Notes under the pieces: model-generated
Database searches by the model: none
Seen by the model: only the letters and a program-made list of their open reading frames with translations
Told to the model about the DNA's origin: nothing
Program-made: the position numbers and the translations under genes
Assembly (NCBI RefSeq): GCF_000026545.1
Contig: NC_011601.1
Direction: 5' to 3' (one strand)
Length of the DNA stretch: 64,000 nt
Source: Escherichia coli O127:H6 str. E2348/69
Lineage (GTDB): Bacteria; Pseudomonadota; Gammaproteobacteria; Enterobacterales; Enterobacteriaceae
Shown: in pieces, positions 1 through 57,883 of the stretch
Layout of the letters: the number at the start of each line of letters is the position of its first letter
How positions within the stretch are numbered: the first letter of the stretch is position 1

Positions 1-342
1 TCTGTTGGGCTATTGACCTTACGTTTCTGGCTACGTTATCAGAAGCATCCACAGGCATTTGCTCGCTGGACGCGCATCGTGCCGCCGGTTGTCGATACGC
101 TGTTATTGTTAAGCGGCATTGCGTTGATGGCTAAAGCGCACATCCTGCCATTTTCCGGGCAGGCACAGTGGCTGACTGAAAAGCTGTTTGGAGTTATCAT
201 TTATATCGTTTTGGGTTTTATTGCACTCGATTATCGTCGTATGCACAGTCAGCAGGCGCGCATTATTGCCTTCCCGCTGGCGTTGGTGGTTCTGTACATC
301 ATCATTAAACTCGCCACCACAAAAGTACCGTTACTGGGGTAA
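1..342 (+). CDS. sirB2: SirB2/YchQ-family inner membrane protein, 5' end truncated by window edge
   Basis: ORF is open to position 1 in frame; hydrophobic membrane protein; sits upstream of sirB1-kdsA as in E. coli. Confidence 0.6.
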   Translation, partial: SVGLLTLRFWLRYQKHPQAFARWTRIVPPVVDTLLLLSGIALMAKAHILPFSGQAQWLTEKLFGVIIYIVLGFIALDYRRMHSQQARIIAFPLALVVLYIIIKLATTKVPLLG

Positions 343-345
343 GTC

Positions 346-1155
346 ATGAGATCGTTAGCTGATTTCGAATTTAATAAAGCGCCATTGTGCGAAGGCATGA
401 TCCTGGCTTGCGAAGCAATCCGCCGCGATTTTCCCTCGCAAGATGTTTACGACGAACTGGAGCGTCTCGTTAGTCTGGCGAAGGAAGAAATTAGCCAGCT
501 TCTGCCATTAGAAGAGCAGCTAGAAAAATTAATCGCGCTGTTTTACGGCGAATGGGGGTTTAAAGCCTCACGCGGCGTTTATCGTCTTTCCGATGCATTA
601 TGGCTGGACCAGGTGTTAAAGAATCGACAGGGCAGTGCGGTATCATTAGGTGCGGTTTTATTATGGGTCGCGAATCGTCTCGATTTGCCGCTGCTGCCGG
701 TGATTTTCCCTACGCAGCTGATATTGCGCATTGAGTGTCCGGATGGCGAAATTTGGCTGATTAATCCTTTTAACGGTGAATCGTTAAGCGAACATATGCT
801 GGATGTGTGGTTAAAGGGAAATATCAGCCCGTCGGCGGAACTGTTTTATGAAGACCTTGATGAAGCTGATAACATTGAGGTAATCCGCAAATTGCTGGAT
901 ACACTCAAAGCTTCGTTGATGGAAGAAAATCAGATGGAGCTGGCGTTACGCACCAGCGAAGCTTTATTACAATTCAACCCGGAAGATCCCTATGAAATTC
1001 GCGATCGCGGGTTGATTTATGCGCAACTGGATTGCGAACACGTTGCGTTGAACGATTTAAGTTATTTCGTTGAACAGTGTCCGGAAGACCCGATCAGCGA
1101 AATGATCCGTGCGCAAATAAATAACATCGCGCATAAACATATTGTGCTGCATTAA
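346..1155 (+). CDS. sirB1: SirB1/YchA-family protein (transglutaminase-like/TPR)
   Basis: 269 aa ORF, conserved position immediately upstream of kdsA. Confidence 0.75.
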   Translation: MRSLADFEFNKAPLCEGMILACEAIRRDFPSQDVYDELERLVSLAKEEISQLLPLEEQLEKLIALFYGEWGFKASRGVYRLSDALWLDQVLKNRQGSAVSLGAVLLWVANRLDLPLLPVIFPTQLILRIECPDGEIWLINPFNGESLSEHMLDVWLKGNISPSAELFYEDLDEADNIEVIRKLLDTLKASLMEENQMELALRTSEALLQFNPEDPYEIRDRGLIYAQLDCEHVALNDLSYFVEQCPEDPISEMIRAQINNIAHKHIVLH

Positions 1156-1181
1156 TTAATCGACATTTTACTCAAGATTAA

Positions 1182-2045
<864 letters not shown>

Positions 2046-2065
2046 TCTTTTTTGCCTGAAAAATA

Positions 2066-2096
2066 AAGTCTTAGCGTTCTGCGTTAAGACTTTTTT
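2066..2096 (+). terminator. Rho-independent terminator of kdsA
   Basis: Inverted repeat AAGTCTTA...TAAGACTT followed by TTTTTT. Confidence 0.65.
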
Positions 2097-2193
2097 CATG
2101 GGTGCCGGATACAAAAAAGGCCGCAGGCTGTTACCCCTGCGGCCGGTTTCGGGCGCATATTGCCATCACGGCAGCCTGACGCCCGTTTTCACC

Positions 2194-2301
2194 TTACTTC
2201 CGGTTACGCCACCAGCCGACAATCGCTGCGGTAATAATTCCCGCAAGGATCGGTGCTGCCAGGTCGTGCCAGAAAGTCATGGCAAACTGCGCGAGCGTCA
2301 T
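2194..2301 (-). CDS. ldrA: Ldr-family type I toxin peptide (35 aa)
   Basis: Minus-strand translation gives MTLAQFAMTFWHDLAAPILAGIITAAIVGWWRNRK, matching the Ldr toxin family; a cognate Rdl antisense RNA is expected nearby but not mapped. Confidence 0.8.
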   Translation of the reverse strand: MTLAQFAMTFWHDLAAPILAGIITAAIVGWWRNRK

Positions 2302-2705
2302 ATAGCCGCCTTGTTGTAATGACAACATTTTGCGGCTATTCTTGAATTGTTCTGGTTCAAGATTAGCCCCCGTTCTGTTGTCAGGTTATACCTCTCAACG
2401 TGCGGGGGTTTTCTCTTTCCAGCAACCAATGCCACCAGGGATAAAGCCCCCGCAACATTGCGCCTCACCGGATAACGCCGGCTTGGTGTGGATACTACGT
2501 CGCAATTCATCTTCACTTCATCCCTGAAATGTTTGCAACAAAGGGTACATTCCGGCTTTTCAACAGCTGTTACAGTCGTTTCGTGCAGGTTGTGGTACAG
2601 GCTTGCAATTCTGATTAACAACCTGTCCAGCTAGTATGAAGAAATATAATAAGCAGGAATTTATATTATCTCCCCCGATTTCCGTCATCGGAGGAGATAT
2701 AACTG

Positions 2706-3806
2706 TCAGGCAAATATCGTCATCAAATAGGCGGCAAACAGTGCCAGATGCGCTGCGCCATTGAGCACGTTAGTTCGTCCGGTGGAGAAGGAGATATGGC
2801 ACAGTACTAAAGAGGCCACCATCACCACCATTTCTGGCGCACCAAGTGCAAACTGCAATTCGTTACCCGTCATAAAGGCAATTAGCGTGACGACAGGTAC
2901 GGTAAGCGAAATGGTTGCCAACACTGAACCAAAGAACAGATTCATCGCGCGCTGGACCTGGTTATTCAACACTGCTTTTAACGCACCTAAACCTTCCGGC
3001 GACAGAATCAACAGAGCCACCAGGAAGCCAGTAAAGGCGACAGGCGCATTCATGCTGTCGAGCAATGTCTCCAGCGGGCTGGCGTTCATTTTGGTGACTG
3101 CAATAACGGCAATCAGATGGACAATCAACCAGATGGCATGCCACAGGCTGCTATGGGCAGACGGTTTACCGTGGTGCGGGTCGTCATCATCACTGTCATC
3201 TTCGTGCTCGTAGACAAACAAACTTTGATGTGTTTTGGTCTGGATCAGCAAAAATACGCCATACATTGCCGCAGAAATTAATGCTACCAGTAACGCCTGA
3301 CCTGTTGAAAAATTCGCTGCAGGCAGAGCCATTGGAAATACCAGTACGATTATCGCCAGGGGGAACAGCGCAATTAAATACTGCTTGATACCAAACAGAT
3401 TCATATATTGGGTGGCAAACTTACGTCCGCCCAACAATAATGAAAAGCCAACCAGCCCACCTGTAACAATCATAATGATTGAATAGAGCGTATCACGCAT
3501 TAGCGTTGGCGCGGCGTCGCCGGTTGCCATTAAAGCTGAAATCAAACTGACTTCAAGAATAACCACTGAAAGGCTAAGAATAAGCGAACCGTAAGGTTCT
3601 CCCAGGCGATGGGCTAATACGTCCGCATGACGGACAACACTAAAGGCGCTACTTAAAATACCAATAAGCGCAAGAAGATTGATGGCAATGACCACTGGTA
3701 GTGTCTGGCTGCTTCCCCACAGGAACAGCACTACCAGCGCCAGAACCGGGAAAATAAGCGAAGTCTCCTTGTGGCGGGTTTTTACCGCCTCTTGAGCATT
3801 TGACAT
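2706..3806 (-). CDS. chaA: Ca2+/H+ (Na+/H+) antiporter
   Basis: 366 aa polytopic membrane protein with acidic loop, conserved context with chaBC. Confidence 0.95.
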   Translation of the reverse strand: MSNAQEAVKTRHKETSLIFPVLALVVLFLWGSSQTLPVVIAINLLALIGILSSAFSVVRHADVLAHRLGEPYGSLILSLSVVILEVSLISALMATGDAAPTLMRDTLYSIIMIVTGGLVGFSLLLGGRKFATQYMNLFGIKQYLIALFPLAIIVLVFPMALPAANFSTGQALLVALISAAMYGVFLLIQTKTHQSLFVYEHEDDSDDDDPHHGKPSAHSSLWHAIWLIVHLIAVIAVTKMNASPLETLLDSMNAPVAFTGFLVALLILSPEGLGALKAVLNNQVQRAMNLFFGSVLATISLTVPVVTLIAFMTGNELQFALGAPEMVVMVASLVLCHISFSTGRTNVLNGAAHLALFAAYLMTIFA

Positions 3807-4075
3807 TATGGTTATCCCTTTGCAGATGAATTTATCGAAAATGTAAAAAATAGGTAGGAAAAATAACAGAAAGTGTCTGGATATCGGTAATATTTTACGA
3901 ATTTTTACCCCGCTGTCGATTTTTTACTCATTTTGGCATAAAAATAAGTAATACGTTTAGACAATGTTTGTTTTAGCACTTCTTAAGAAGAGTCTGACAT
4001 GAAAATTCTTATGTTTTGGCAAGAGTAAATATTGTTGACCACACTTAATGTTCAACTTTGTAAAAGGAGTCAACG

Positions 4076-4306
4076 ATGTCGTATAAAACGAAAAGCGATC
4101 TGCCGGAAAGCGTAAAGCACGTGCTTCCGTCTCATGCCCAGGATATCTATAAAGAAGCGTTCAACAGCGCATGGGATCAATATAAAGATAAAGAAGATCG
4201 GCGTGATGACGCCAGTCGCGAAGAAACAGCGCATAAAGTGGCCTGGGCTGCGGTGAAGCATGAATATGCCAAAGGGGATGATGATAAATGGCATAAAAAA
4301 TCGTAA
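4076..4306 (+). CDS. chaB: Cation transport regulator ChaB
   Basis: 76 aa, MSYKTKSDLPESVKHVLPSHAQDIYKEAFNSAWDQYK. Confidence 0.9.
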   Translation: MSYKTKSDLPESVKHVLPSHAQDIYKEAFNSAWDQYKDKEDRRDDASREETAHKVAWAAVKHEYAKGDDDKWHKKS

Positions 4307-4463
4307 AACCGGTAGCTTAGTTAAAGCTATTCGTGCGGTGTTGCCTTGCAAGTGGTCCGTGGATTGCATCTTGTCCCGTTAGTGGTTTCAAAATGAGCAG
4401 TAAAAATGTCCGGAAGACACCAAAAAGTTGTCGCAGGGAAGTATGCAGTGGCGGAGGTGTAAG

Positions 4464-5159
4464 GTGATAACGCGTGATTTCTTGATGAATGCCGATTGTA
4501 AAACGGCATTTGGTGCCATTGAAGAATCACTCTTATGGTCAGCAGAACAACGGGCGGCTTCGCTGGCGGCGACGCTGGCTTGCCGACCTGATGAGGGACC
4601 GGTGTGGATCTTCGGTTATGGATCGTTGATGTGGAATCCGGCACTGGAGTTTACCGAGTCGTGCACCGGTACACTGGTTGGATGGCATCGCGCGTTTTGC
4701 CTGCGTCTGACCGCCGGGCGCGGGACTGCGCACCAGCCGGGACGAATGCTTGCACTGAAAGAGGGCGGACGCACCACAGGCGTCGCCTATCGACTGCCAG
4801 AAGAGACGCTGGAGCAGGAACTAACCCTGCTGTGGAAGCGTGAGATGATTACCGGCTGTTATCTGCCAACCTGGTGTCAGCTTGATCTTGATGATGGACG
4901 CACAGTAAACGCCATTGTGTTTATTATGGACCCGCGACATCCAGAATATGAATCTGACACTCGCGCTCAGGTCATAGCGCCGTTGATTGCGGCGGCGAGC
5001 GGTCCGCTGGGAACCAACGCACAATACCTGTTTTCACTGGAACAGGAGCTTATCAAACTGGGAATGCAGGACGATGGGCTGAATGATTTGCTGGTATCGG
5101 TAAAAAAACTGCTGGCGGAGAATTATCCGGATGGTGTGTTACGGCCGGGATTCGCCTGA
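4464..5159 (+). CDS. chaC: Glutathione-specific gamma-glutamylcyclotransferase ChaC
   Basis: ChaC family (GYGSLMWNP motif); start placed at in-frame GTG 4464 (ORF opens at 4428), start uncertain. Confidence 0.85.
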   Translation: MITRDFLMNADCKTAFGAIEESLLWSAEQRAASLAATLACRPDEGPVWIFGYGSLMWNPALEFTESCTGTLVGWHRAFCLRLTAGRGTAHQPGRMLALKEGGRTTGVAYRLPEETLEQELTLLWKREMITGCYLPTWCQLDLDDGRTVNAIVFIMDPRHPEYESDTRAQVIAPLIAAASGPLGTNAQYLFSLEQELIKLGMQDDGLNDLLVSVKKLLAENYPDGVLRPGFA

Positions 5160-5176
5160 GTAAACTTCCCTCATAG

Positions 5177-5194
5177 TGGGGCGTCAGACGCCCC
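5177..5194. terminator. Bidirectional hairpin between convergent chaC and ychN
   Basis: GGGGCGTC-aga-GACGCCCC perfect inverted repeat. Confidence 0.55.
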
Positions 5195-5202
5195 CTCAAA
5201 CA

Positions 5203-5556
5203 TTAAAATGTGAGCACTTTATCGGCTGACAGCGTCCATTGCGCCAGTTCCACAAGAGTACCGATTTCCACCCCATCAATCAGAGGAAGTGTACTAATCC
5301 CGCGCCCGTCAGTACAGGTTTTGCACAATTTCACCGGTACATTCTGAGCGGTAAGGATCTCCAGCATTTGCTGAATGTTGTAGCCTTCCCCTGGTTTTTG
5401 CCCGCGCAACCCGGCTGTGACCGCATCAGACATCAGGAACAGACGCAGATCCAGATTGCTCTCCTGCTCTCGTAACGCAATGGCCAGCCGCAAGCTGTTA
5501 AACAAGGATTCGCTCCCGTAAGGTGCGCCATTGGCAACGATCACGATTTTTTGCAT
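5203..5556 (-). CDS. ychN: DsrE/DsrF-like family protein YchN
   Basis: 117 aa, MQKIVIVANGAPYGSES... Confidence 0.9.
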   Translation of the reverse strand: MQKIVIVANGAPYGSESLFNSLRLAIALREQESNLDLRLFLMSDAVTAGLRGQKPGEGYNIQQMLEILTAQNVPVKLCKTCTDGRGISTLPLIDGVEIGTLVELAQWTLSADKVLTF

Positions 5557-5573
5557 TATTTACTCCTGTATTC

Positions 5574-5677
<104 letters not shown>

Positions 5678-5678
5678 T

Positions 5679-5731
<53 letters not shown>

Positions 5732-5740
5732 ACCGACGTT

Positions 5741-7135
5741 TTGAGCCGTTTCGTTCCTCGCATTATTCCGCTTTATTTACTCTTGCTGGCGGCAGGCGGT
5801 ACAGCTAACGCACAATCTACCTTCGAGCAAAAAGCGGCGAATCCCTTTGATAATAACAATGATGGTCTGCCAGATTTAGGCATGGCACCCGAAAATCATG
5901 ATGGGGAAAAACACTTTGCTGAAATTGTGAAAGATTTCGGCGAAACCAGTATGAATGATAACGGGCTGGATACTGGCGAGCAGGCAAAAGCTTTCGCATT
6001 GGGAAAAGTCCGCGACGCGCTTAGTCAACAGGTTAATCAGCACGTAGAGTCCTGGCTATCACCGTGGGGAAATGCCAGTGTTGACGTCAAAGTGGATAAC
6101 GAAGGACATTTCACCGGCAGTCGTGGAAGCTGGTTTGTGCCGTTACAAGATAATGATCGTTATCTCACCTGGAGCCAGCTTGGTCTTACTCAGCAGGATG
6201 ATGGGCTGGTGAGCAATGTGGGCGTTGGGCAACGCTGGGCGCGCGGCAGCTGGCTGGTGGGTTATAACACTTTTTATGACAACTTGCTGGACGAAAATCT
6301 TCAGCGAGCGGGCTTCGGTGCCGAAGCGTGGGGCGAATATTTGCGACTATCGGCAAACTTTTATCAGCCGTTTGCTGCATGGCATGAACAGACAGCCACG
6401 CAGGAACAACGGATGGCGCGCGGGTACGACCTGACAGCCCGAATGCGCATGCCGTTCTATCAACACCTCAATACCAGTGTCAGCGTAGAACAGTATTTTG
6501 GTGATCGTGTTGATTTGTTTAACTCTGGTACGGGTTATCACAATCCCGTCGCGTTGAGTCTGGGATTAAATTATACCCCAGTGCCATTAGTCACTGTGAC
6601 GGCCCAGCATAAACAGGGTGAAAGTGGCGAGAATCAAAATAACCTCGGACTGAATCTTAACTACCGCTTTGGTGTACCGCTCAAAAAACAACTTTCTGCG
6701 GGCGAGGTTGCCGAAAGTCAGTCGTTACGTGGTAGTCGCTATGACAATCCGCAGCGAAATAATCTGCCGACTCTTGAGTACCGACAGCGAAAAACCTTAA
6801 CGGTGTTTCTGGCGACACCGCCGTGGGATCTAAAACCTGGCGAAACAGTGCCGCTGAAATTACAAATCCGCAGTCGTTACGGTATTCGGCAACTGATTTG
6901 GCAGGGCGATACGCAGATATTAAGTTTGACGCCGGGCGCACAAGCCAACAGCGTGGAGGGCTGGACGCTGATCATGCCTGACTGGCAGAACGGGGAAGGG
7001 GCGAGCAATCACTGGCGATTGTCGGTGGTGGTGGAAGATAACCAGGGGCAGCGTGTCTCCTCCAATGAGATCACGCTAACGCTTGTCGAACCGTTCGATG
7101 CATTGTCAAACGACGAACTGCGCTGGGAACCGTAA
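5741..7135 (+). CDS. ychO: Invasin/intimin-like inverse autotransporter family protein YchO
   Basis: 464 aa with signal-peptide-like N-terminus, conserved position upstream of narL; start uncertain. Confidence 0.8.
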   Translation: MSRFVPRIIPLYLLLLAAGGTANAQSTFEQKAANPFDNNNDGLPDLGMAPENHDGEKHFAEIVKDFGETSMNDNGLDTGEQAKAFALGKVRDALSQQVNQHVESWLSPWGNASVDVKVDNEGHFTGSRGSWFVPLQDNDRYLTWSQLGLTQQDDGLVSNVGVGQRWARGSWLVGYNTFYDNLLDENLQRAGFGAEAWGEYLRLSANFYQPFAAWHEQTATQEQRMARGYDLTARMRMPFYQHLNTSVSVEQYFGDRVDLFNSGTGYHNPVALSLGLNYTPVPLVTVTAQHKQGESGENQNNLGLNLNYRFGVPLKKQLSAGEVAESQSLRGSRYDNPQRNNLPTLEYRQRKTLTVFLATPPWDLKPGETVPLKLQIRSRYGIRQLIWQGDTQILSLTPGAQANSVEGWTLIMPDWQNGEGASNHWRLSVVVEDNQGQRVSSNEITLTLVEPFDALSNDELRWEP

Positions 7136-7786
7136 TCAGAAAATGCGCTCCTGATGCACCCATACCGCTGCTTCCACGCGAGACTTGAGCTTCATTTTCT
7201 TCAGCATGTGCTTGACGTGCACTTTTACTGTGCTTTCGGTGATATCCAGGCGGCGGGCAATCATCTTGTTCGGCAAACCCTGGGCAATCAGCTTGAGTAT
7301 ATCGCGCTCGCGTGGGGTTAACTGGTTAACATCGCGTTCAGTAGTGGCACGGCTAGCGCGCAAGCTGGCGGCCAGAACTGGCGTTAATGCTTCGCTTAAT
7401 ACCATTTCGCCAGCAGCTGCCTGATGTAACGCTTTCAGCAGATCTTCCGGTTCCATATCTTTTAACAGATAGCCATCCGCGCCGCGTTTCAGTGCGGTGA
7501 CCACATCTTCTTCATGGTTAGAGACGCTGAATACCACAATGCGACCGGAGAGGGACTTTTCGCGCAGTTTATCCAGCGTTTCCAGACCATTCATGCCGGG
7601 CATATTGAGATCTAACAGGATCAGATCGGGATCAAGAGATTCCGCCAGTTCAATACCCTGTTCGCCATTACTCGCTTCGCCAACCACGGTGATATCTGGT
7701 GCCATACTGATAAGCTGTTTTACGCCAGTTCGCAGCATCGGGTGATCGTCGATCAGCAGGATAGTAGCCGGTTCCTGATTACTCAT
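7136..7786 (-). CDS. narL: Nitrate/nitrite response regulator NarL
   Basis: 216 aa from [25 protein letters not shown]; REC plus LuxR-type HTH. Confidence 0.95.
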
Positions 7787-9575
7787 GGGTATCTCCTTGG
7801 ACGTCTGTGAAAGTTTTTTCGGGAATAAAGGTGACAACCACTTCGGTGCCACCTGATTCACGACGGCGGACGCGGCAATCGCCTCGTAAACTTTGCGCAC
7901 GGTCGCGCATTATTATCATGCCGTAGTGATTGCTGCGGATGGCATTTTCAGGCACGCCGCAGCCGTTATCCTGGACGGTCAGTTTGACCTGATTATCGTT
8001 TTGCGCCACCGTCACCACGACCTCACTCGCTTGCGAATGTTTGAGGGCGTTACTTAATGCCTCACGGGCAATTTGCAACAAGTGGATTGCCTGATGCGAA
8101 GGCACCAGACGAGGCGGCAATTGATAATCCAGCTTCACCGGGAAGCCAAATTTGGCGCTGTACTCTTCGCAACTCGCCTCCAGCGCCGGACGTAATCCAG
8201 GCTCGGTGAGCTGCAAGCGGAATGTGGTGAGCAATTCACGCAACTGCGCCCAGGATGCATTCAGTTCGTTACGGATCTGACTTAACAGTTCGCGGCTGCT
8301 TTCTGGCAGCGCATCGCCCTGCATCTGTAAACAACTCACCTGCATCTTCATGCAAGAGAGAGATTGGGCAATAGAATCATGCAGTTCGCGCGCAATGGTG
8401 GCACGCTCTTCCATCACGATCAACTGTTGCTGACGTTCCTGATGCCGATCCAGCGCCAGCGTGGCGGTGAGTTGTTCAACCAGGGTATCCACCAGTTGTT
8501 GTTGATCATGGCTAAGATGACGCCCCTGCGGCAGGGTCGCCAGCAAAATACCGTACTGCGTATGAGAGTCAGCCAGCCGCCACTTCAGGGTTGTACCGCG
8601 ATCGCCAACGGGTAATACGCCGCGCGGGCAGAGCTGGCAGCCTTTATCATCACAAGTCATATCTGACTGGCAGGTAAACTCCTGATGATTCTCTTCATCA
8701 TCAGTGTCATACACCCGCAGTTCGATATCACGTAGCAGGGTTAAATTCTGTAATCCGTTGAGTACAGGTGACAGGCGTTCACACAGCGGGGCGCGGGAAT
8801 GCAAACGGCGGTTAGCCTGCCATAAAAAAGAGAGGATCTGATTTTTATGCTCCAGCCCGGCGGTTTTCTCCTGAACCCGCTGCTCAAGTACAGCATAACT
8901 TTCCGCCAGTTCTGCAGACATATTGTTCAACGCAGTTCCAAGCATCGCCATTTCGTTGCGCCCGCTGGTGTTTGCGCGTTGGGTAAAATCGCGATGGCTG
9001 ACGGCACTCGCCATTGCCAGCAGTTGCCGCCACGGTTGTAGCAATCTCGCCCGCAACCAGATAATAGTGAATACCAGTAAAAGTGCCATAAATACTGCCA
9101 TTACCCGATGGACCAGCACCACTGTCTCAATGCGCATTTCCGTGGTGCGATCAAAACCAGATACCAGCTGATCAAGCCCGGCAACAAACTGGCTGACATC
9201 CGCTGACACCGTTTCGCGGTTTTGTGCACGCATCAGTGCAGGGATTAATTCATTACGCCAGTAATCTTGTAAACCCTGTAATTGCGCCAGTTGCCCGTCT
9301 CGTTCTGCTGCTCGAGTCAACTCGGCGCTAAATGCCGTTTGTTCCATCTCTTTAATTAAGGGCTTGTCTTTCTCGCTTAATGGCACTGCTGCCAACAGAC
9401 GGTAACTTTGCATGCGCAGCGATCCCGCTTTGTTGATCGCATGGGCGCTACCCTGAACGCCTTGCACCAGCCAGCCAGAAACCGCCATCCCTGCCAGTCC
9501 AATAGCAGTAGAAAGCAACACAATAAGCGCAACCTGATTAACCAGGGTAAGCGGAGAGAGACAACGTTTAAGCAT
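7779..9575 (-). CDS. narX: Nitrate/nitrite sensor histidine kinase NarX
   Basis: 598 aa, overlaps narL start by 8 nt; HAMP/histidine kinase organisation. Confidence 0.95.
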
Positions 9576-50790: not shown

Positions 50791-51429
50791 ATGAAAAAGT
50801 TAACAGTGGCGGCTTTGGCAGTAACAACTCTTCTCTCTGGCAGTGCCTTTGCGCATGAAGCAGGCGAATTTTTTATGCGTGCAGGTTCTGCAACCGTACG
50901 TCCAACAGAAGGTGCTGGTGGTACGTTAGGAAGTCTGGGTGGATTCAGCGTGACCAATAACACGCAACTGGGCCTGACGTTTACTTATATGGCGACCGAT
51001 AACATTGGTGTGGAATTGCTGGCAGCGACGCCGTTCCGCCATAAAGTTGGCACAGCCACTACCGGGGATATTGCGACTGTCCACCATTTACCGCCAACAC
51101 TGATGGCACAATGGTATTTTGGCGATTCAGGCAGTAAATTCCGTCCTTACATTGGTGCGGGTATTAACTACACCACCTTTTTTAATAATGACTTCAATGA
51201 CACCGGTGAAGGTCTTGGTTTATCTGACCTTAGTCTGAAGGATTCATGGGGCGTGGCGGGGCAAGTAGGTCTGGATTATCTCATCAACCGTGACTGGTTG
51301 CTGAATATGTCGGTCTGGTACATGGATATCGATACCACGGCTAAGTACAAATCTGGTGTTACTACCGTAAAAGACTCGGTACGACTGGATCCGTGGGTGT
51401 TTATGTTCTCCGCAGGATATCGTTTTTAA
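50791..51429 (+). CDS. ompW: Outer membrane protein W
   Basis: 212 aa, MKKLTVAALAVTTLLSGSAFA signal peptide, beta-barrel ending in GYRF. Confidence 0.95.
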   Translation: MKKLTVAALAVTTLLSGSAFAHEAGEFFMRAGSATVRPTEGAGGTLGSLGGFSVTNNTQLGLTFTYMATDNIGVELLAATPFRHKVGTATTGDIATVHHLPPTLMAQWYFGDSGSKFRPYIGAGINYTTFFNNDFNDTGEGLGLSDLSLKDSWGVAGQVGLDYLINRDWLLNMSVWYMDIDTTAKYKSGVTTVKDSVRLDPWVFMFSAGYRF

Positions 51430-51474: not shown

Positions 51475-52605
51475 TCAAATGACCAGTTTTTTCCATTCCT
51501 TACCGCGTGCGTCGTTGTAAATATCGGTCATTTTTTGATTCGAATGGCCTAGCAAAATTTTGGTATCAACCCCCTGCTCTCTGAACAATCGCTCTGATAA
51601 AGATCTCTGCTCATGGAAAGAGGGAGGGGTGCCATTAGCACGCCAGTTGTAATCCACAGAATCCCGGGCTTTTTTAAATGCAACGGTTAATGTTGCTGGC
51701 TTAACCATCCCGCCGCGCTTAGCTGTCCCTTTCGCGTGATGGTGGTGCAATAGCCACGGACTAAGAACGCAATCGCGGCAGGATGACACCACATCATCCA
51801 GGGTGAGATTTAATTTATCGCAACGCAGAGCCAGAGGGATGGCAATCCGGGTTCCTGTTTTTTGCTGTTCGACATGAAGATAACCATCCCGGATATCCGA
51901 AAATTGCATTTTGCAAATATCTGAAAGGCGCTGGCCTGTCATCAGTGCCAGCAGCATACCTCGCTGTAAAAAGTAACCATCCTTTTCCGCTGCGTTATAA
52001 ATCATCATCCACTCATCAAAAGTCAGTCGCTGTCTTGATATCCGCACCTGCGGTTTTTTTGCCGATTCTGCAGGGTTAAAGCCTGGCGGGACATCGCCCG
52101 TTTGCTGAGCTTCCCGGAAAACATCGATCAGTACTTTCCTGAAAATTTGTCCCATTCTGTTATGTCCTCTGGCCTTGTACTCTTCCAGTACTGATACCAC
52201 ATCTTTTACGGTTATGGCATCTAACGGTCTGGTGCCAAAACGTTCATCAAATACCCTGAGAGGGGCCGCTTTCTGTTTCAGCGTGTTGAGTTTGATCTCG
52301 CCGTTTTTATATCTTTCCTGTTGAATTTTTCTGTAATTATTCAGAAAAATGGTAACGGTTGATGAACCGCCGGTATCACTAATAATTTTCTCCTGCAGAC
52401 TGAGCATTTGTTCCATTTGCTGCCGGGCAAGACGGCTGTTCGCTTCTGCTGCAATAGTTTCTGCCAGTTTCTGGTCAATACTGCCGAGACCGTGATTTTT
52501 GCCTGTTATGGGATGCCTGTAACGCCAGTAAACTTTGTTATTTCTTTTGTCAAAATACGGAGATAATCCCGGAACATCGGTTTTATATTTTCGCGGGCGC
52601 GCCAT
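51475..52605 (-). CDS. int: Prophage tyrosine integrase
   Basis: 376 aa; HxxR (FHEQRSL) and catalytic Tyr (MTDIYND) near C-terminus; 3' end overlaps hairpin CTGGTCAT-caa-ATGACCAG. Confidence 0.9.
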   Translation of the reverse strand: MARPRKYKTDVPGLSPYFDKRNNKVYWRYRHPITGKNHGLGSIDQKLAETIAAEANSRLARQQMEQMLSLQEKIISDTGGSSTVTIFLNNYRKIQQERYKNGEIKLNTLKQKAAPLRVFDERFGTRPLDAITVKDVVSVLEEYKARGHNRMGQIFRKVLIDVFREAQQTGDVPPGFNPAESAKKPQVRISRQRLTFDEWMMIYNAAEKDGYFLQRGMLLALMTGQRLSDICKMQFSDIRDGYLHVEQQKTGTRIAIPLALRCDKLNLTLDDVVSSCRDCVLSPWLLHHHHAKGTAKRGGMVKPATLTVAFKKARDSVDYNWRANGTPPSFHEQRSLSERLFREQGVDTKILLGHSNQKMTDIYNDARGKEWKKLVI

Positions 52606-52831
52606 CTTCCAGTATCCTCTTCAAAGCAGGGTGATCTGTGGCGATCACCTCCGGCTTGTTTACCATTCCGACAAAGCGAGCTTGCGGATCCACTCGCCAG
52701 CGTCTTCCAACTTTTTTGGGGAGAGGAAATATCATTCCGGCTTTAGCGTATTTACTTAACGTACTCGGAGTTGGGACCGGTTCACTGAATTCCTCTTTTG
52801 CCCACTCAGTGAGCAGAATAAGTCTTGCCAT
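52583..52831 (-). CDS. xis: Excisionase/AlpA-like DNA-binding protein
   Basis: 82 aa, overlaps int start, GRRWRVDP motif. Confidence 0.7.
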   Translation of the reverse strand: MARLILLTEWAKEEFSEPVPTPSTLSKYAKAGMIFPLPKKVGRRWRVDPQARFVGMVNKPEVIATDHPALKRILEDGAPAKI

Positions 52832-52895: not shown

Positions 52896-55367
52896 TTAAA
52901 AATCAGCCTGATTCGGGATCAGTTTTTGCCAGATAACTGAAACGTATTTTGCCTGGTAACGGGCGTCATCAAGTGCATTATGGCGCTCACCTTCGAATGG
53001 AATAGCCGTTCTGGCATCGAAGTCTATGGCTTTCCCCAGCTCAACGATTGTGCGTACATCGCGATCGTTGTAGTAACGCCACGGGCAGGGGATCCCCTGC
53101 CGTTCGTATGAACGGCGCAAAATCGTGTTGTCGAAGTTGGCTCCATTTCCCCAGACCTGAACAAAAAATTCACCGGAGTTTTCGTCGATAAATTCCCGCA
53201 ATTGTAACAGTGCATCATCTAACGGGATTTCATCGGTCATAATGGCAGATTGCGCTTCGCGTGATTGCTTAAGCCACCATTTAATGGTGTCCCGATCAAT
53301 GACCCCGCCAGCAGTTTCCAGATCGATAGTCTTACTAAATTCCGGTCCCATATCTCCGGTTTGCGGATCGAAAAATATTGCACCTATTGAGATGATCGGG
53401 GCATCAGGATTTTTTCCCATGGTTTCAAGGTCGATCATTAGATGGTCACACGTCCTGCTGGTGGATGTGATTTCTTGATGACCGTTCACCTTAATTGAGT
53501 GATCTGCCGTCTCGCCAGTTTCATTATCGCTATCGTGATGCTGATTGCCGTCAGTGTTCTCCTTGTGTGGATGTTCAGCGCCTTCCATTTCCTCCGGATC
53601 ATCTTCCTGAACTTCAACCTGATACTCTTCATCGAATGTTTCCTGGTATGTTGCGTCGCCCATCACCGCGCCACAATCAGGGCAGTTGCCGCCGCCGGTC
53701 TGACCGCAGGCGGTGCAGACTTTTTCCACTTCCTGTTGCGCCACTGGTTCAGGCTGTTTCGTTTCTGGCTCGTTTTGTAACGCATTTGGGCTGTTTTGTT
53801 CCGCTTTCTGGCCGTTCTGTTCCGTTTCTTGCTGGTTCTGATTCACTGAATCGCGGGTTTCAATCCCCTTCACCCATTTCGGATCATTCTGGTCGCTAAT
53901 CCCTGCAACAAATTCTCCGCGAGAGGCAGCAAGCAACTTATCGGCGTCAGGCTGGCTGATATTGGCTGCCTGCATAATTTTGTTTACTTCGTCAGCGGTA
54001 ACTTTTACCGGCTCTGGTTGTGCGGTCGTGTCAGATGCACCAGTATTTTGTTGTGAACCTGAGTATGTACTGTTTTTGCGGGCGAAATATTCTTCTTTCG
54101 TGATTTCAGTAGCCCCGGCAGCCAGCGCCTTATCCAGACCAGAAAGTTTGTTTGCGCGACCGTATTTTTCGCCATCCTTGTCGGTGAAGAGGAAGTAGAA
54201 CGGCCCTTCACGCTCTACAGATGGTTCGACTTCCACTTTGCATTCGGTTTTTTCGTTGTCCGGAATTGCCGTTTCCACTGCATCAGTTTCTGGTACTGGC
54301 GACGAGAGAGTATCAGTTGCGCTCTGATTTCTTCCTTCATCTTCAAACACGCCCTTTGTAGTCAGGTATTCAGTAATGTATTTGTTCAGTGCCACAGGGT
54401 CTTTGTGAATGTCGATCGGACGTTCACGGACAAGGCCAAAAATAGTCTGGCGGTCGTAGCGAAGGGCATCAGGCTGTTTGCGCATTGATGCCGAGATACG
54501 CTTCCAGTCTTCGCGGTCGTTGTCGATAACTTCATTTTTTGCCCAGCGATGGATGCTGCCGTCAATGTTTCCGGCATCCACATCACCAGGCCAGAGAGCG
54601 TAGGCCAGTTCGTCATCCAGTGTTTTCCATGTCTGCTTGTATTCGCGATGAATGGCAGCAATGACCGGGCTGATTTTTCCTGTTGAATTTTCAGTGTTCT
54701 GTTGATTGGTTCTGGCGCGGGCGAGATCAACAACAGACGTGTATTTTCCGGTTTCCTTGCGTTCACCTTCGCGACGTTTTTTCCAGATGCGCATCTCTGC
54801 CTGAATTTCGGGCCATTTGGCACCAGGCTTACATTTATGCTTAACCCACCCGATGGCATGCAGCTTAAGCTCCGGATACATGGCGTTAACTTCTGGCATT
54901 TTCATCAACGCTTCAACGATATGTCCGTCGAATGTTGCCATGTCTTCCTGCAACAATTCCTGTGCGCTAATAACCATATCAACGGTGATGTTTTCACATG
55001 TGTCGAACTTAACCATGACAGCGTTCGGTACTTCAGGGGCCAGCTTGTCAAAAGTGACGTTCATCGGATCTGATTCAGTCTCAACCGGGACAAAGGAAGC
55101 AGACTCCTCATCCCAGCGGTTTTCCTGCATATATTCAGCATCCCAGGAATCGAGGGCAGGGCGGGGTATGCCGGGTTTATCCTCACAGACAATAAATTTA
55201 TAAGCGCAGTCCTGAGCTGCAGGGAATTGCTCCAGAAATTGCCAATGAAATTTTGCGCGTGCGCGACGCTCATCACCAGCTTCAATGGCAGTGGCCACCG
55301 CAACAGCGCTATCTTCTTTTATGGCCTGTTCATCAGGAATAGCAGCGCAAATAAAGACTTTACTCAT
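52896..55367 (-). CDS. Prophage exonuclease with C-terminal DnaQ-like DEDDh 3'-5' exonuclease domain
   Basis: 823 aa; C-terminal motifs MIDLETMG (Exo I), NGANFDNTIL (Exo II), HNALDDARYQA (Exo III); CTACGQTGGGNCPDCG zinc-ribbon-like; acidic low-complexity linker. Confidence 0.8.
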   Translation of the reverse strand: MSKVFICAAIPDEQAIKEDSAVAVATAIEAGDERRARAKFHWQFLEQFPAAQDCAYKFIVCEDKPGIPRPALDSWDAEYMQENRWDEESASFVPVETESDPMNVTFDKLAPEVPNAVMVKFDTCENITVDMVISAQELLQEDMATFDGHIVEALMKMPEVNAMYPELKLHAIGWVKHKCKPGAKWPEIQAEMRIWKKRREGERKETGKYTSVVDLARARTNQQNTENSTGKISPVIAAIHREYKQTWKTLDDELAYALWPGDVDAGNIDGSIHRWAKNEVIDNDREDWKRISASMRKQPDALRYDRQTIFGLVRERPIDIHKDPVALNKYITEYLTTKGVFEDEGRNQSATDTLSSPVPETDAVETAIPDNEKTECKVEVEPSVEREGPFYFLFTDKDGEKYGRANKLSGLDKALAAGATEITKEEYFARKNSTYSGSQQNTGASDTTAQPEPVKVTADEVNKIMQAANISQPDADKLLAASRGEFVAGISDQNDPKWVKGIETRDSVNQNQQETEQNGQKAEQNSPNALQNEPETKQPEPVAQQEVEKVCTACGQTGGGNCPDCGAVMGDATYQETFDEEYQVEVQEDDPEEMEGAEHPHKENTDGNQHHDSDNETGETADHSIKVNGHQEITSTSRTCDHLMIDLETMGKNPDAPIISIGAIFFDPQTGDMGPEFSKTIDLETAGGVIDRDTIKWWLKQSREAQSAIMTDEIPLDDALLQLREFIDENSGEFFVQVWGNGANFDNTILRRSYERQGIPCPWRYYNDRDVRTIVELGKAIDFDARTAIPFEGERHNALDDARYQAKYVSVIWQKLIPNQADF

Positions 55368-55459
55368 TTTGTTTTACCTCATTACAGATTTAAGGGTGAA
55401 CAAATCCCTGCCATTGCTGGCATATAAGAATGAAACCGGATGTTTATTACGGAACTGTT

Positions 55460-55651
55460 TTAAAGACCTGCCGGGATTTCGTTATTATCCTGGTGAATAA
55501 CTTTATCGACCGGGTAACAGTTACCGGGAATTTTCTGTTCGGTTGCTGCAGTCACACACTCCTGCATTGTCCTGTGAACACTGACTGCAATATCAACTGG
55601 CTCTCCGGAAACAAGAAAAACTGTCAGAACAAGTGCAAATGCTGTATTCAT
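55460..55651 (-). CDS. ydfD: YdfD-like small membrane (lysis) protein
   Basis: 63 aa from MNTAFALVLTVFLVSGEPVDIAVSVHRTMQEC; recalled as Qin-prophage ydfD; alternative start 55660. Confidence 0.6.
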   Translation of the reverse strand: MNTAFALVLTVFLVSGEPVDIAVSVHRTMQECVTAATEQKIPGNCYPVDKVIHQDNNEIPAGL

Positions 55652-55836
55652 TGCCAGCATCCTTTTTGTATCGGACGTAAACGGGCCAGCATTGAAAGAA
55701 TGCATATTTTATTTAATAGCTCCCGTTCGTGTTTTCTCTTGTTAATGGCATCTTCAGTAAATACAGGGTTACTGATAGTGACACCAATTTCAAAACAACC
55801 TTCAGACGTATTAACGTTTGGTAATAACGTTTCCAT
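55648..55836 (-). CDS. dicB: Cell division inhibitor DicB (MinC activator)
   Basis: 62 aa METLLPNVNTSEGCFEIGVTISNPVFTEDAINKRKHERELLNKICILSMLARL, near-identical to DicB as recalled. Confidence 0.9.
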   Translation of the reverse strand: METLLPNVNTSEGCFEIGVTISNPVFTEDAINKRKHERELLNKICILSMLARLRPIQKGCWQ

Positions 55837-56010: not shown

Positions 56011-56063
56011 CGGCGGCAGAGCAGTCACGGAGTAAAACTGATACCGCCAAACGTCACCAGAAA
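56011..56063 (-). ncRNA. dicF: DicF small RNA (ftsZ translation inhibitor)
   Basis: Minus strand reads TTTCTGGTGACGTTTGGCGGTATCAGTTTTACTCCGTGACTGCTCTGCCGCCG then a T-run, matching recalled DicF. Confidence 0.85.
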
Positions 56064-57381: not shown

Positions 57382-57424
57382 GGATACCCATAGGTATTTA
57401 AAAAGTAAATACCTATGGGTAAAT
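57382..57424. promoter_or_regulatory. Pair of TACC-N4-GGTA dyads (candidate OL-type operator and/or repressor-gene terminator)
   Basis: TACCCATAGGTA (57385-96) and its reverse complement TACCTATGGGTA (57410-21), separated by AAAAAGT. Confidence 0.5.
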
Positions 57425-57463: not shown

Positions 57464-57883
57464 CTATGATGCGTTTTGTGCTTTCTTTTTACGGATTTCT
57501 TCGTAGATCATATTGTAATACTGTTTTTTCTCTTCAAGAGTTTTTAATAATTTATCCGCTTCACTTTCTGGCAGTTCGTCTAAGAGATCTAAAAAAATAC
57601 GTTGTCGTGGCGTTAGAACCCTTGTTTCATAACTGGAGGCTGTGTTCGTTGATGATGAAACGATACCATCCATCCATCCCCGGGGTAACCCAAAGGACTC
57701 TTCGATAATCTCCACCATATCATCAGCGATCCGTTTTTTTCCCTTTTTCCCCTCTGGGTACAACATTCTTGATACATAAGAAGGCTCGCGCCCGATCTTT
57801 CTGGCCACGTTAACCGCTTTACCATCGCATTTCTCATCACGAATTTTGATGAGTTGCTGTCGTCTAAATTCATATTTGTCCAT
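57464..57883 (-). CDS. Putative prophage repressor (short HTH protein in cI position)
   Basis: 139 aa, HTH-like segment AVNVARKIGREPSYVSRM, divergent from Cro-like gene. Confidence 0.55.
   Translation of the reverse strand: MDKYEFRRQQLIKIRDEKCDGKAVNVARKIGREPSYVSRMLYPEGKKGKKRIADDMVEIIEESFGLPRGWMDGIVSSSTNTASSYETRVLTPRQRIFLDLLDELPESEADKLLKTLEEKKQYYNMIYEEIRKKKAQNAS

Follow-up and report, generated by a model that had tools for sequence, protein, structure and literature searches.

A ydfE-type prophage gene of enteropathogenic Escherichia coli predicted to join a RecE-type scaffold to a DexA-like 3'-5' exonuclease head

RecE and RecT are the workhorse of recombineering. In Rac RecE (exodeoxyribonuclease VIII) of K-12 the catalytic region is a PD-(D/E)XK 5'-3' nuclease, and a 2023 review describes the non-catalytic part of the protein as 'of unknown function'; full-length RecE, that is, RecE with this part, boosts linear-linear recombination (PMC11611040). 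Phage T4 encodes an exonuclease of another kind, DexA (exonuclease A, PDB 8KEL/8KEN), to which two roles are assigned in PMC12153337: intron homing, a double-strand-break repair process, and host DNA scavenging. An E. coli homologue of DexA, EcD ('HREX'), cuts T4 DNA containing 5-hydroxymethylcytosine (5hmC) but not unmodified double-stranded DNA, and protects E. coli from T4 (PMC12153337). We describe here a gene of 823 codons, carried by a prophage of enteropathogenic E. coli (EPEC) E2348/69, whose product resembles RecE over most of its length and DexA at its C-terminus. The window, that is, the whole stretch of 64,000 nt that was analysed, belongs to the chromosome of this strain, with which it matches at 100% identity.

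The initial annotation of this DNA had described an open reading frame (ORF) of 823 amino acids (aa) with Exo I, II and III motifs of the DEDDh type, a CxxC-x7-CxxC zinc ribbon and an acidic linker, and each of these elements is present. The gene and the parts of its product are as follows.

52896..55367, minus strand: whole gene, 823 codons and stop, from ATG to stop, taken from the ORF list; named '3'-5' exonuclease' by PGAP (WP_000048378.1)
55377..55380, minus strand: GAGG ribosome-binding site (Shine-Dalgarno) in the upstream sequence, 10-13 nt before the ATG
54600..55367, minus strand: aa 1-256, YdfE_N (PF27430), a divergent homologue of the RecE N-terminal domain PF06630 (Exonuc_VIII)
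54333..54599, minus strand: aa 257-345, core common to RecE 278-351, Pfam YdfE_C (PF27432)
54063..54215, minus strand: aa 385-435, small conserved module (GPFYF...GRANKL...EITKEEY) seen in the alignment consensus, ratio of nonsynonymous to synonymous substitution rates (dN/dS) 0.07
53853..53957, minus strand: aa 471-505, peptide motif LLAASRGEFVxGISDxNDPKWV, found in RecE and in relatives with other heads, dN/dS 0.12
53628..53723, minus strand: aa 549-580, zinc ribbon C551-x2-C554-x7-C562-x2-C565 with its flanks, the counterpart in Rac RecE being C518...C532
53448..53627, minus strand: aa 581-640, acidic flexible linker, 35-38% Asp+Glu
about nt 53493, minus strand: head-swap junction inside the acidic linker, near aa 625, where similarity to K-12 recE stops at RecE aa 591
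52896..53447, minus strand: aa 641-823, predicted DEDDh 3'-5' exonuclease head, T4 DexA/Rv2179c-like (PF16473, E=2e-67)

The first 256 residues are 96% identical to the product of ydfE (b1577), a pseudogene that likewise neighbours dicB and ydfD in the cryptic K-12 prophage Qin. In K-12, IS2E interrupts the reading frame after codon 256, and everything beyond that point, the exonuclease included, is gone; judged by this identity, the window gene is the intact form of ydfE, known in K-12 only as a wreck. The YdfE_N and RecE-type (PF06630) N-termini were considered as unrelated alternatives, a possibility ruled out by comparison of the two profiles with hhalign, which align over 200 columns with a probability of 96.7% and E=4e-10. 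Beyond the N-terminal domain, aa 262-625 align with Rac RecE 278-591 (BLASTP E=9e-61), weakly at first, with 25% identity and E=7e-6 between aa 262-336 and RecE 278-351, and then with 67% identity between aa 474-625 and RecE 454-591, or 74% when one 14-residue indel is left aside. This last, identical-rich stretch includes the LLAASRGEFVxGISDxNDPKWV motif, the zinc ribbon (CTACGQTGGGNCPDCG, aa 551-566) and the acidic linker; a Gln/Asn/Glu-rich stretch (506-548) lies ahead of the ribbon and the acidic stretch (~570-640) after it. The NCBIfam RecE model NF007259, an equivalog model, matches aa 246-625 with 272 bits, below its cut-off of 1269 bits. Module 385-435 falls in a gap of the alignment with K-12 RecE, from which it is missing, and is present in many relatives. 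The resemblance to RecE ends with the linker, as no match to RecE 600-866, the PD-(D/E)XK region, was detected by BLAST. These comparisons indicate that residues 1-625 are a divergent RecE-type non-catalytic scaffold, and that the catalytic head alone differs. A domain search of the N-terminal 600 residues had been called for when the ORF was first described; run here, it places the zinc ribbon, the linker and the whole of aa 1-625 in a RecE-type region rather than in unexplained new sequence.

At the C-terminus, the claim of a DnaQ-like DEDDh 3'-5' exonuclease is borne out by five catalytic residues and a strong family match. Exo I is represented by D646 and E648 in MIDLETMG, aligned with D7 and E9 of DexA, Exo II by D746 in NFDN, and Exo III by H796-x4-D801. 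PF16473 (Rv2179c-like) covers aa 642-813 with 226.6 bits against a 27-bit cut-off (E=2e-67), from profile position 2 to 177 of 177. The sole sequence match of the head in the PDB is T4 DexA (8kel/8ken, E=1.5e-6), itself a member of PF16473, and the family therefore includes DNA exonucleases despite its 'exoribonuclease' name. The head is thus predicted to be a metal-dependent 3'-5' exonuclease. With DexA it shares the Pfam family, the alignment of all five DEDDh residues and a phage origin; DexA differs in being a stand-alone protein of 227 aa, ~28% identical, with extra loops, its own W152 and D169, and no RecE-type scaffold. Rv2179c of M. tuberculosis, which gave the family its name, has the same Pfam domain but is a cellular stand-alone exoribonuclease, and it is distant, as no PDB sequence hit to it was obtained at E<=0.1.

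The relationship to EcD was examined through an EcD-like protein retrieved by means of the published EcD primer; published EcD is HAK9828821.1. The EcD-like protein is a stand-alone PF16473 protein of 189 aa that starts at Exo I (MIDTET), has A78 as published, and is 38% identical to the head of the 823-aa protein over the whole head. Identity of published EcD with the head of the 823-aa protein was considered and rejected, since the primer starts at MIDTET, the identity is 38%, residue 78 is alanine and the operon is P2-like. The EcD-like gene (locus L105, 6401-6991, minus strand; neighbours 315-8941) lies in a P2-like early operon, in the order cox ... EcD-like gene, Dam methylase gene, DUF4406 gene ... 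GPA. From this early-operon place the EcD-like exonuclease is therefore a phage early gene and not a chromosomal defence gene. Both proteins are phage-borne, in phages of different type and in different operons.

The residues that characterize HREX enzymes do not recur in the head of the 823-aa protein. W152 of DexA, a tryptophan in EcD as well, is replaced by Y766, a position occupied by Y in 71/75 alleles and by C or T in the others; as the residue is still aromatic in most alleles, the head may have kept a partial function. D169 of DexA sits in a DexA-specific insertion without counterpart here. The DexA tetramer residue D90, whose loss defines the 'defence' (dimer) state, is kept as D718, which is invariant, where EcD has A78. 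Thus, neither a W152 equivalent, nor a D169 equivalent, nor the loss of D90 was found.

The gene is clearly not a chance ORF, and purifying selection acts on all of its folded parts. In 79/80 related viral-contig loci (94-100% identity) the ORF is intact, with 821-830 codons. A dN/dS of 0.14 was computed over 70 distinct alleles for aa 1-256, with 0.12 in the zinc ribbon and 0.17 in the DEDDh domain; the acidic linker has a value of 0.86, with 72% variable columns. D746, H796, D801, C551, C554 and C565 are invariant in 75 full-length alleles, and C562 is conserved in 74/75. One of the 80 viral-contig copies (L015-L094) is cut to a 306-codon ORF, the same length as the IS2-disrupted K-12 ydfE frame, which suggests that the K-12-type disruption occurs in other strains also. 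The family is not a new entity, being catalogued already as 'exonuclease' or '3'-5' exonuclease' by PGAP, as 'exonuclease' in PHROG (phrog_2082) and as YdfE_N/YdfE_C/Rv2179c-like in Pfam, the YdfE_N and YdfE_C names being taken from precomputed Pfam hits on 97%-identical proteins. Behind these names the protein is a RecE-family member with an alternative nuclease head.

The RecE-type region is not tied to one kind of head. A search of aa 1-512 against 1.84 billion 50% representative proteins returned 217 relatives, and the family is therefore narrow; a full-length search of 90% clusters gave near-identical E. coli proteins alone. The longer relatives, classed by BLAST against reference modules, by Pfam and by genomic context, have four kinds of C-terminal head, and each head type occurs on both YdfE_N-type and RecE-type (PF06630) N-termini. 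The heads, the proteins that carry them (P numbers are our representatives) and the genes that follow are listed below.

DEDDh head (PF16473): the 823-aa protein, P0122, P0135, P0230, P0242, P0259, P0267 and P0269; followed directly by xis-int in every context examined, including phage HannyBb
RecE-type PDDEXK head (PF12684): P0130, P0184, P0187, P0192, P0231 and P0260; wherever the neighbourhood can be seen (K-12; locus L123, PF03837 E=2e-36), an overlapping gene for RecT comes next
Rad52-like annealase head of ~270 residues, without Pfam or PDB sequence match: 16 representatives; followed by an overlapping Sipho_Gp157 gene (PF05565) in 3/3 independent contexts
Fourth head of ~230 aa: P0126 (locus L011, 5001-7109), P0261, P0244 and P0228; in the slot before xis-int, at ompW in some contigs

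For the fourth head no Pfam, PHROG-function or PADLOC match was obtained. The heads follow a partner rule, RecT accompanying the PDDEXK head, Gp157 the annealase head and nothing the DEDDh head.

Head exchange is most directly observed in P0242. At the nucleotide level the gene follows K-12 recE, with 92.8% identity, from a point ahead of the start codon as far as codon 591; from codon 482 until 10 nt beyond the stop it follows the window gene, with 92.9% identity. It lies in a Rac-like prophage with kilR and ydaE ahead of it, xis-int after it and no recT. P0242 is thus a clean natural chimera of RecE's own scaffold with a DEDDh head, the junction being in the acidic linker. The converse natural combination, a YdfE scaffold carrying the RecE nuclease, is seen in P0130. 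Two other proteins show further rearrangements. In P0122 (901 aa; locus L010, 387-3092) a PF06630 N-terminal domain and most of YdfE_N stand in tandem, followed by the shared core and a DEDDh head, so that a single protein can contain both of the homologous types of N-terminal domain. P0235 (703 aa) joins RecE 1-450 (100% identity) to RecT (97% identity, protein aa 520-703), apparently through an in-frame deletion fusing the RecE scaffold to RecT. Scaffold fusions go unmentioned in Lopes 2010 and in the 2024 Rad52-superfamily paper, and in the literature searchable here we found no published statement that the RecE N-terminus is a scaffold common to heads of opposite polarity and to an annealase.

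The DEDDh form is abundant. Among 5426 complete E. coli genomes, counting matches that cover >=80% of the query, the three modules were found as follows.

DEDDh head: 4047 genomes, 8161 places
recE nuclease head: 1730 genomes, 1827 places
lambda exo-bet: 3139 genomes, 5402 places

The DEDDh head is present in 75% of complete E. coli genomes, often in several copies, including those in effector- or Stx-associated prophages of EPEC and enterohaemorrhagic E. coli, and no other gene fills the 'recombination slot' of E. coli prophages as often. The earlier statement that the 5'-3' lambda Exo/RecE type is what is usually found in this position is, for E. coli, not borne out by these counts. The gene is not confined to integrated prophages, as it is carried also by the free-living phages HannyBb, Tritos and mEp460.

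The position of the gene matches that of known recombination genes. The prophage is lambdoid and Qin/Rac-like, and is integrated beside ompW according to the annotation of the identical E2348/69 record. Read leftwards on the minus strand, the order is repressor, hairpin terminator, DUF1391 (ydfA-like), DicF, dicB, ydfD-like, 823-codon gene, xis, int and ompW, with the following coordinates.

57464-57883: repressor gene
57385-57421: hairpin formed by a perfect palindrome of 16 bp, with T-runs on either strand, shortly after the end of the repressor gene
56011..56062, minus strand: DicF small RNA (Rfam RF00039, 72.5 bits, E=5e-15), which marks a dicBF-type early operon
55648..55836, minus strand: dicB, cell-division inhibitor (E2348/69 annotation)
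55460..55651, minus strand: ydfD-like DUF1482 gene, directly upstream of the 823-codon gene and in the same operon (E2348/69 annotation)
52583..52831, minus strand: excisionase gene (xis), directly downstream, with no recT, bet or other gene between (ORF list and annotation)
51475..52605, minus strand: integrase gene, int (ORF list and annotation)
50791-51429, plus strand: ompW, abutted by the prophage end (ORF list and annotation)

DicF has no annotation in the RefSeq record of the region, and its presence shows a complete dicBF-type operon in the prophage. The hairpin is probably a bidirectional terminator between the repressor gene and this operon. The layout is that of the K-12 cryptic prophage Qin (dicA, ydfABC, dicF, dicB, ydfD, ydfE, intQ), with a parallel in Rac, where recE and recT fill the place ahead of xisR and intR; in the loci compared, the slot immediately upstream of xis-int is the one used by recET and lambda red. 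The protein thus has in common with Rac RecE a Rac/Qin-type early-left position before xis-int together with the homologous N-terminal domain, core, motif, zinc ribbon and linker. It differs from RecE in having a predicted DEDDh 3'-5' head in place of the 5'-3' nuclease, and its gene is not followed by recT, ralR or rcbA. With lambda Red (Exo and Bet) and other two-component phage recombinases the gene shares the slot and early expression, and in the loci examined the systems are mutually exclusive per prophage; they differ in that the 823-aa protein has the opposite predicted polarity, a different fold and no annealase partner. A consensus scan of the 92-nt gap ahead of the gene found no promoter-like site. 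The gene would be transcribed only after repressor loss, as the last dicBF-type early-left cistron before xis-int, because it closes the dicBF-type operon and is preceded by no promoter-like site. Outside the window, this prophage (locus L006, E2348/69 2684000-2724000) has nleA, nleH1-2 and nleF beyond the tail fibre genes, and the exonuclease gene therefore belongs to an effector-carrying EPEC prophage; the L006 region has in addition an ISEc13 insertion, two Q-type antiterminator genes, RusA and a DUF968 gene.

That no RecT/Bet-like annealase gene adjoins the exonuclease gene had been noticed at the outset, and it holds for the whole element. The annotation of the E2348/69 prophage lists no annealase, a RusA resolvase being present, and tblastn with RecT, Bet, lambda Exo, Gam, the RecE nuclease and the Rad52-like head gave no match in the window, the rest of the prophage or the 80 related loci with 6-kb flanks, ERF and Sak4 not being among the queries. 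Of the two things named at the outset as speaking together against the initial reading, a well-characterised exonuclease family and an annealase nearby, the first was found (T4 DexA/Rv2179c) and the second was not.

The account that we favour, while giving it slightly less than an even chance, is one of 3'-end trimming by the protein, at the ends of phage DNA, at breaks or at intermediates of replication, in the course of recombination-dependent replication or repair. On the model of DexA and EcD, the head would remove nucleotides from DNA 3'-OH ends by two-metal-ion hydrolysis. The scaffold would deliver the head to such sites, or assemble it there, as it would also do with the nuclease head of RecE and, in sister phages, with the Rad52-like annealase head. 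Trimming would take off 3' tails or flaps or expose 5' overhangs, and the trimmed ends would be annealed, primed or joined in phage recombination-dependent replication and repair. As no cognate annealase is involved in this scheme, pairing would come from host RecA/RecFOR, with the prophage RusA as resolvase, or from annealases of co-resident prophages. We count in its favour the mosaic identity with RecE, the P0242 head swap, the recET/red slot, the purifying selection, the carriage by free-living phages, the membership of DexA, with its intron-homing role, in the same Pfam family, the scaffold effect in RecE and the operon context.

Several considerations weigh against this account. 3'-5' resection yields 5' overhangs, which are not the substrate of RecA or of Rad52-type annealases in canonical pathways, and the tblastn searches just described uncovered no encoded annealase. 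Among the E. coli homologues that have been tested, the one nearest to the head is EcD, at 38% identity, and it is reported as an anti-T4 nuclease and not as a recombination enzyme (PMC12153337). With no function assigned to the scaffold even in RecE, its sharing is evidence of a common context and not of a common pathway. The expression argument is inferred from gene order and a consensus scan only. Finally, no experimental or functional study of the 823-aa protein or of ydfE, and no biochemical or genetic data on the protein, were found in the searchable literature.

The first alternative is prophage defence, in which the head would degrade modified (5hmC-type) DNA of superinfecting T-even-like phages in the manner of EcD. 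The anti-T4 activity of EcD and its selectivity for T4 DNA over unmodified double-stranded DNA (PMC12153337), together with the 38% identity of the 189-aa PF16473 protein to the head, speak for this, as does the very wide distribution of the gene, often in multiple copies per genome, which is frequently seen with prophage-borne defence genes. We nevertheless regard it as unlikely. The HREX determinants are not kept, as W152 has become Y766, the D169 region is absent and D90 is retained as D718, and the gene lies inside the repressed early region between ydfD and xis without a promoter-like site of its own, which lysogen-expressed defence genes normally have. PADLOC, in a database version that predates HREX, returned no match for the 823-aa protein or for two sister types. 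Defence would also leave the 640-residue RecE-type scaffold, and the sister proteins headed by an annealase or by the RecE nuclease, unexplained.

Counter-defence, in which the exonuclease would destroy a host immune nucleic acid or signal during lytic growth (retron msDNA, that is, multicopy single-stranded DNA, guide or primer 3' ends, or linear oligonucleotide signals), appears quite unlikely. Rac RecE degrades retron msDNA in vivo and the neighbouring RacC blocks the retron toxin (bioRxiv 10.1101/2020.06.22.160242), which already connects the RecE slot with host immunity; the timing of an early operon would suit such a role, and the presence of the exoribonuclease Rv2179c in PF16473 makes small RNA or oligonucleotide substrates plausible. 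The argument is nonetheless purely one of analogy, and what RecE does to the retron is to set it off, not to overcome it. The gene shows no consistent association with any defence system, and the annealase-headed sister proteins are again unaccounted for.

General breakdown of host or other DNA for nucleotide salvage, or clearing of oligonucleotides, with no specific link to recombination, is in our view highly unlikely. Host DNA scavenging is one of the two roles given to DexA in PMC12153337, and the heads belong to the same family, but an enzyme of this kind would not need a conserved 640-residue scaffold common to RecE and to annealase fusions. No temperate lambdoid phage is known to degrade the host chromosome. 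Least probable of all, and very improbable, is an RNA-directed exonuclease that processes or degrades phage or host transcripts such as that of the dicBF operon, whose DicF small RNA arises by processing: the gene is in the same transcript as DicF and the Pfam and PGAP names of relatives read '3'-5' exoribonuclease', but that name was given after a single mycobacterial member, DNA is the substrate of DexA and EcD, the closest two relatives that have been characterised, and the scaffold is common to DNA-recombination heads.

Returning to 3'-end trimming in phage DNA metabolism, a broader proposal can be framed tentatively, as one that we consider possible but doubtful. The N-terminal ~600 residues of RecE may serve lambdoid phages of enterobacteria as a general delivery scaffold on which heads can be swapped; the interchangeable heads would be a 5'-3' exonuclease (with RecT), a Rad52-type annealase (with Gp157), a DexA-like 3'-5' exonuclease (alone) and the fourth head. 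The DEDDh version, the commonest in E. coli, would then represent an annealase-independent pathway of phage DNA-end processing or repair, with a resection polarity opposite to that of every known phage recombination system.

The same RecE region is conserved under selection and is re-used with at least four C-terminal heads, two of which are recognisable as recombination enzymes. The ready-made natural chimeras make the role of the RecE N-terminus, two-thirds of RecE, a comparative and testable question. If the role of the DEDDh form is in recombination, it would bear on DNA exchange among the mosaic prophage pools of pathogenic E. coli; if it is in defence or counter-defence, the protein would be a very abundant unrecognised player.

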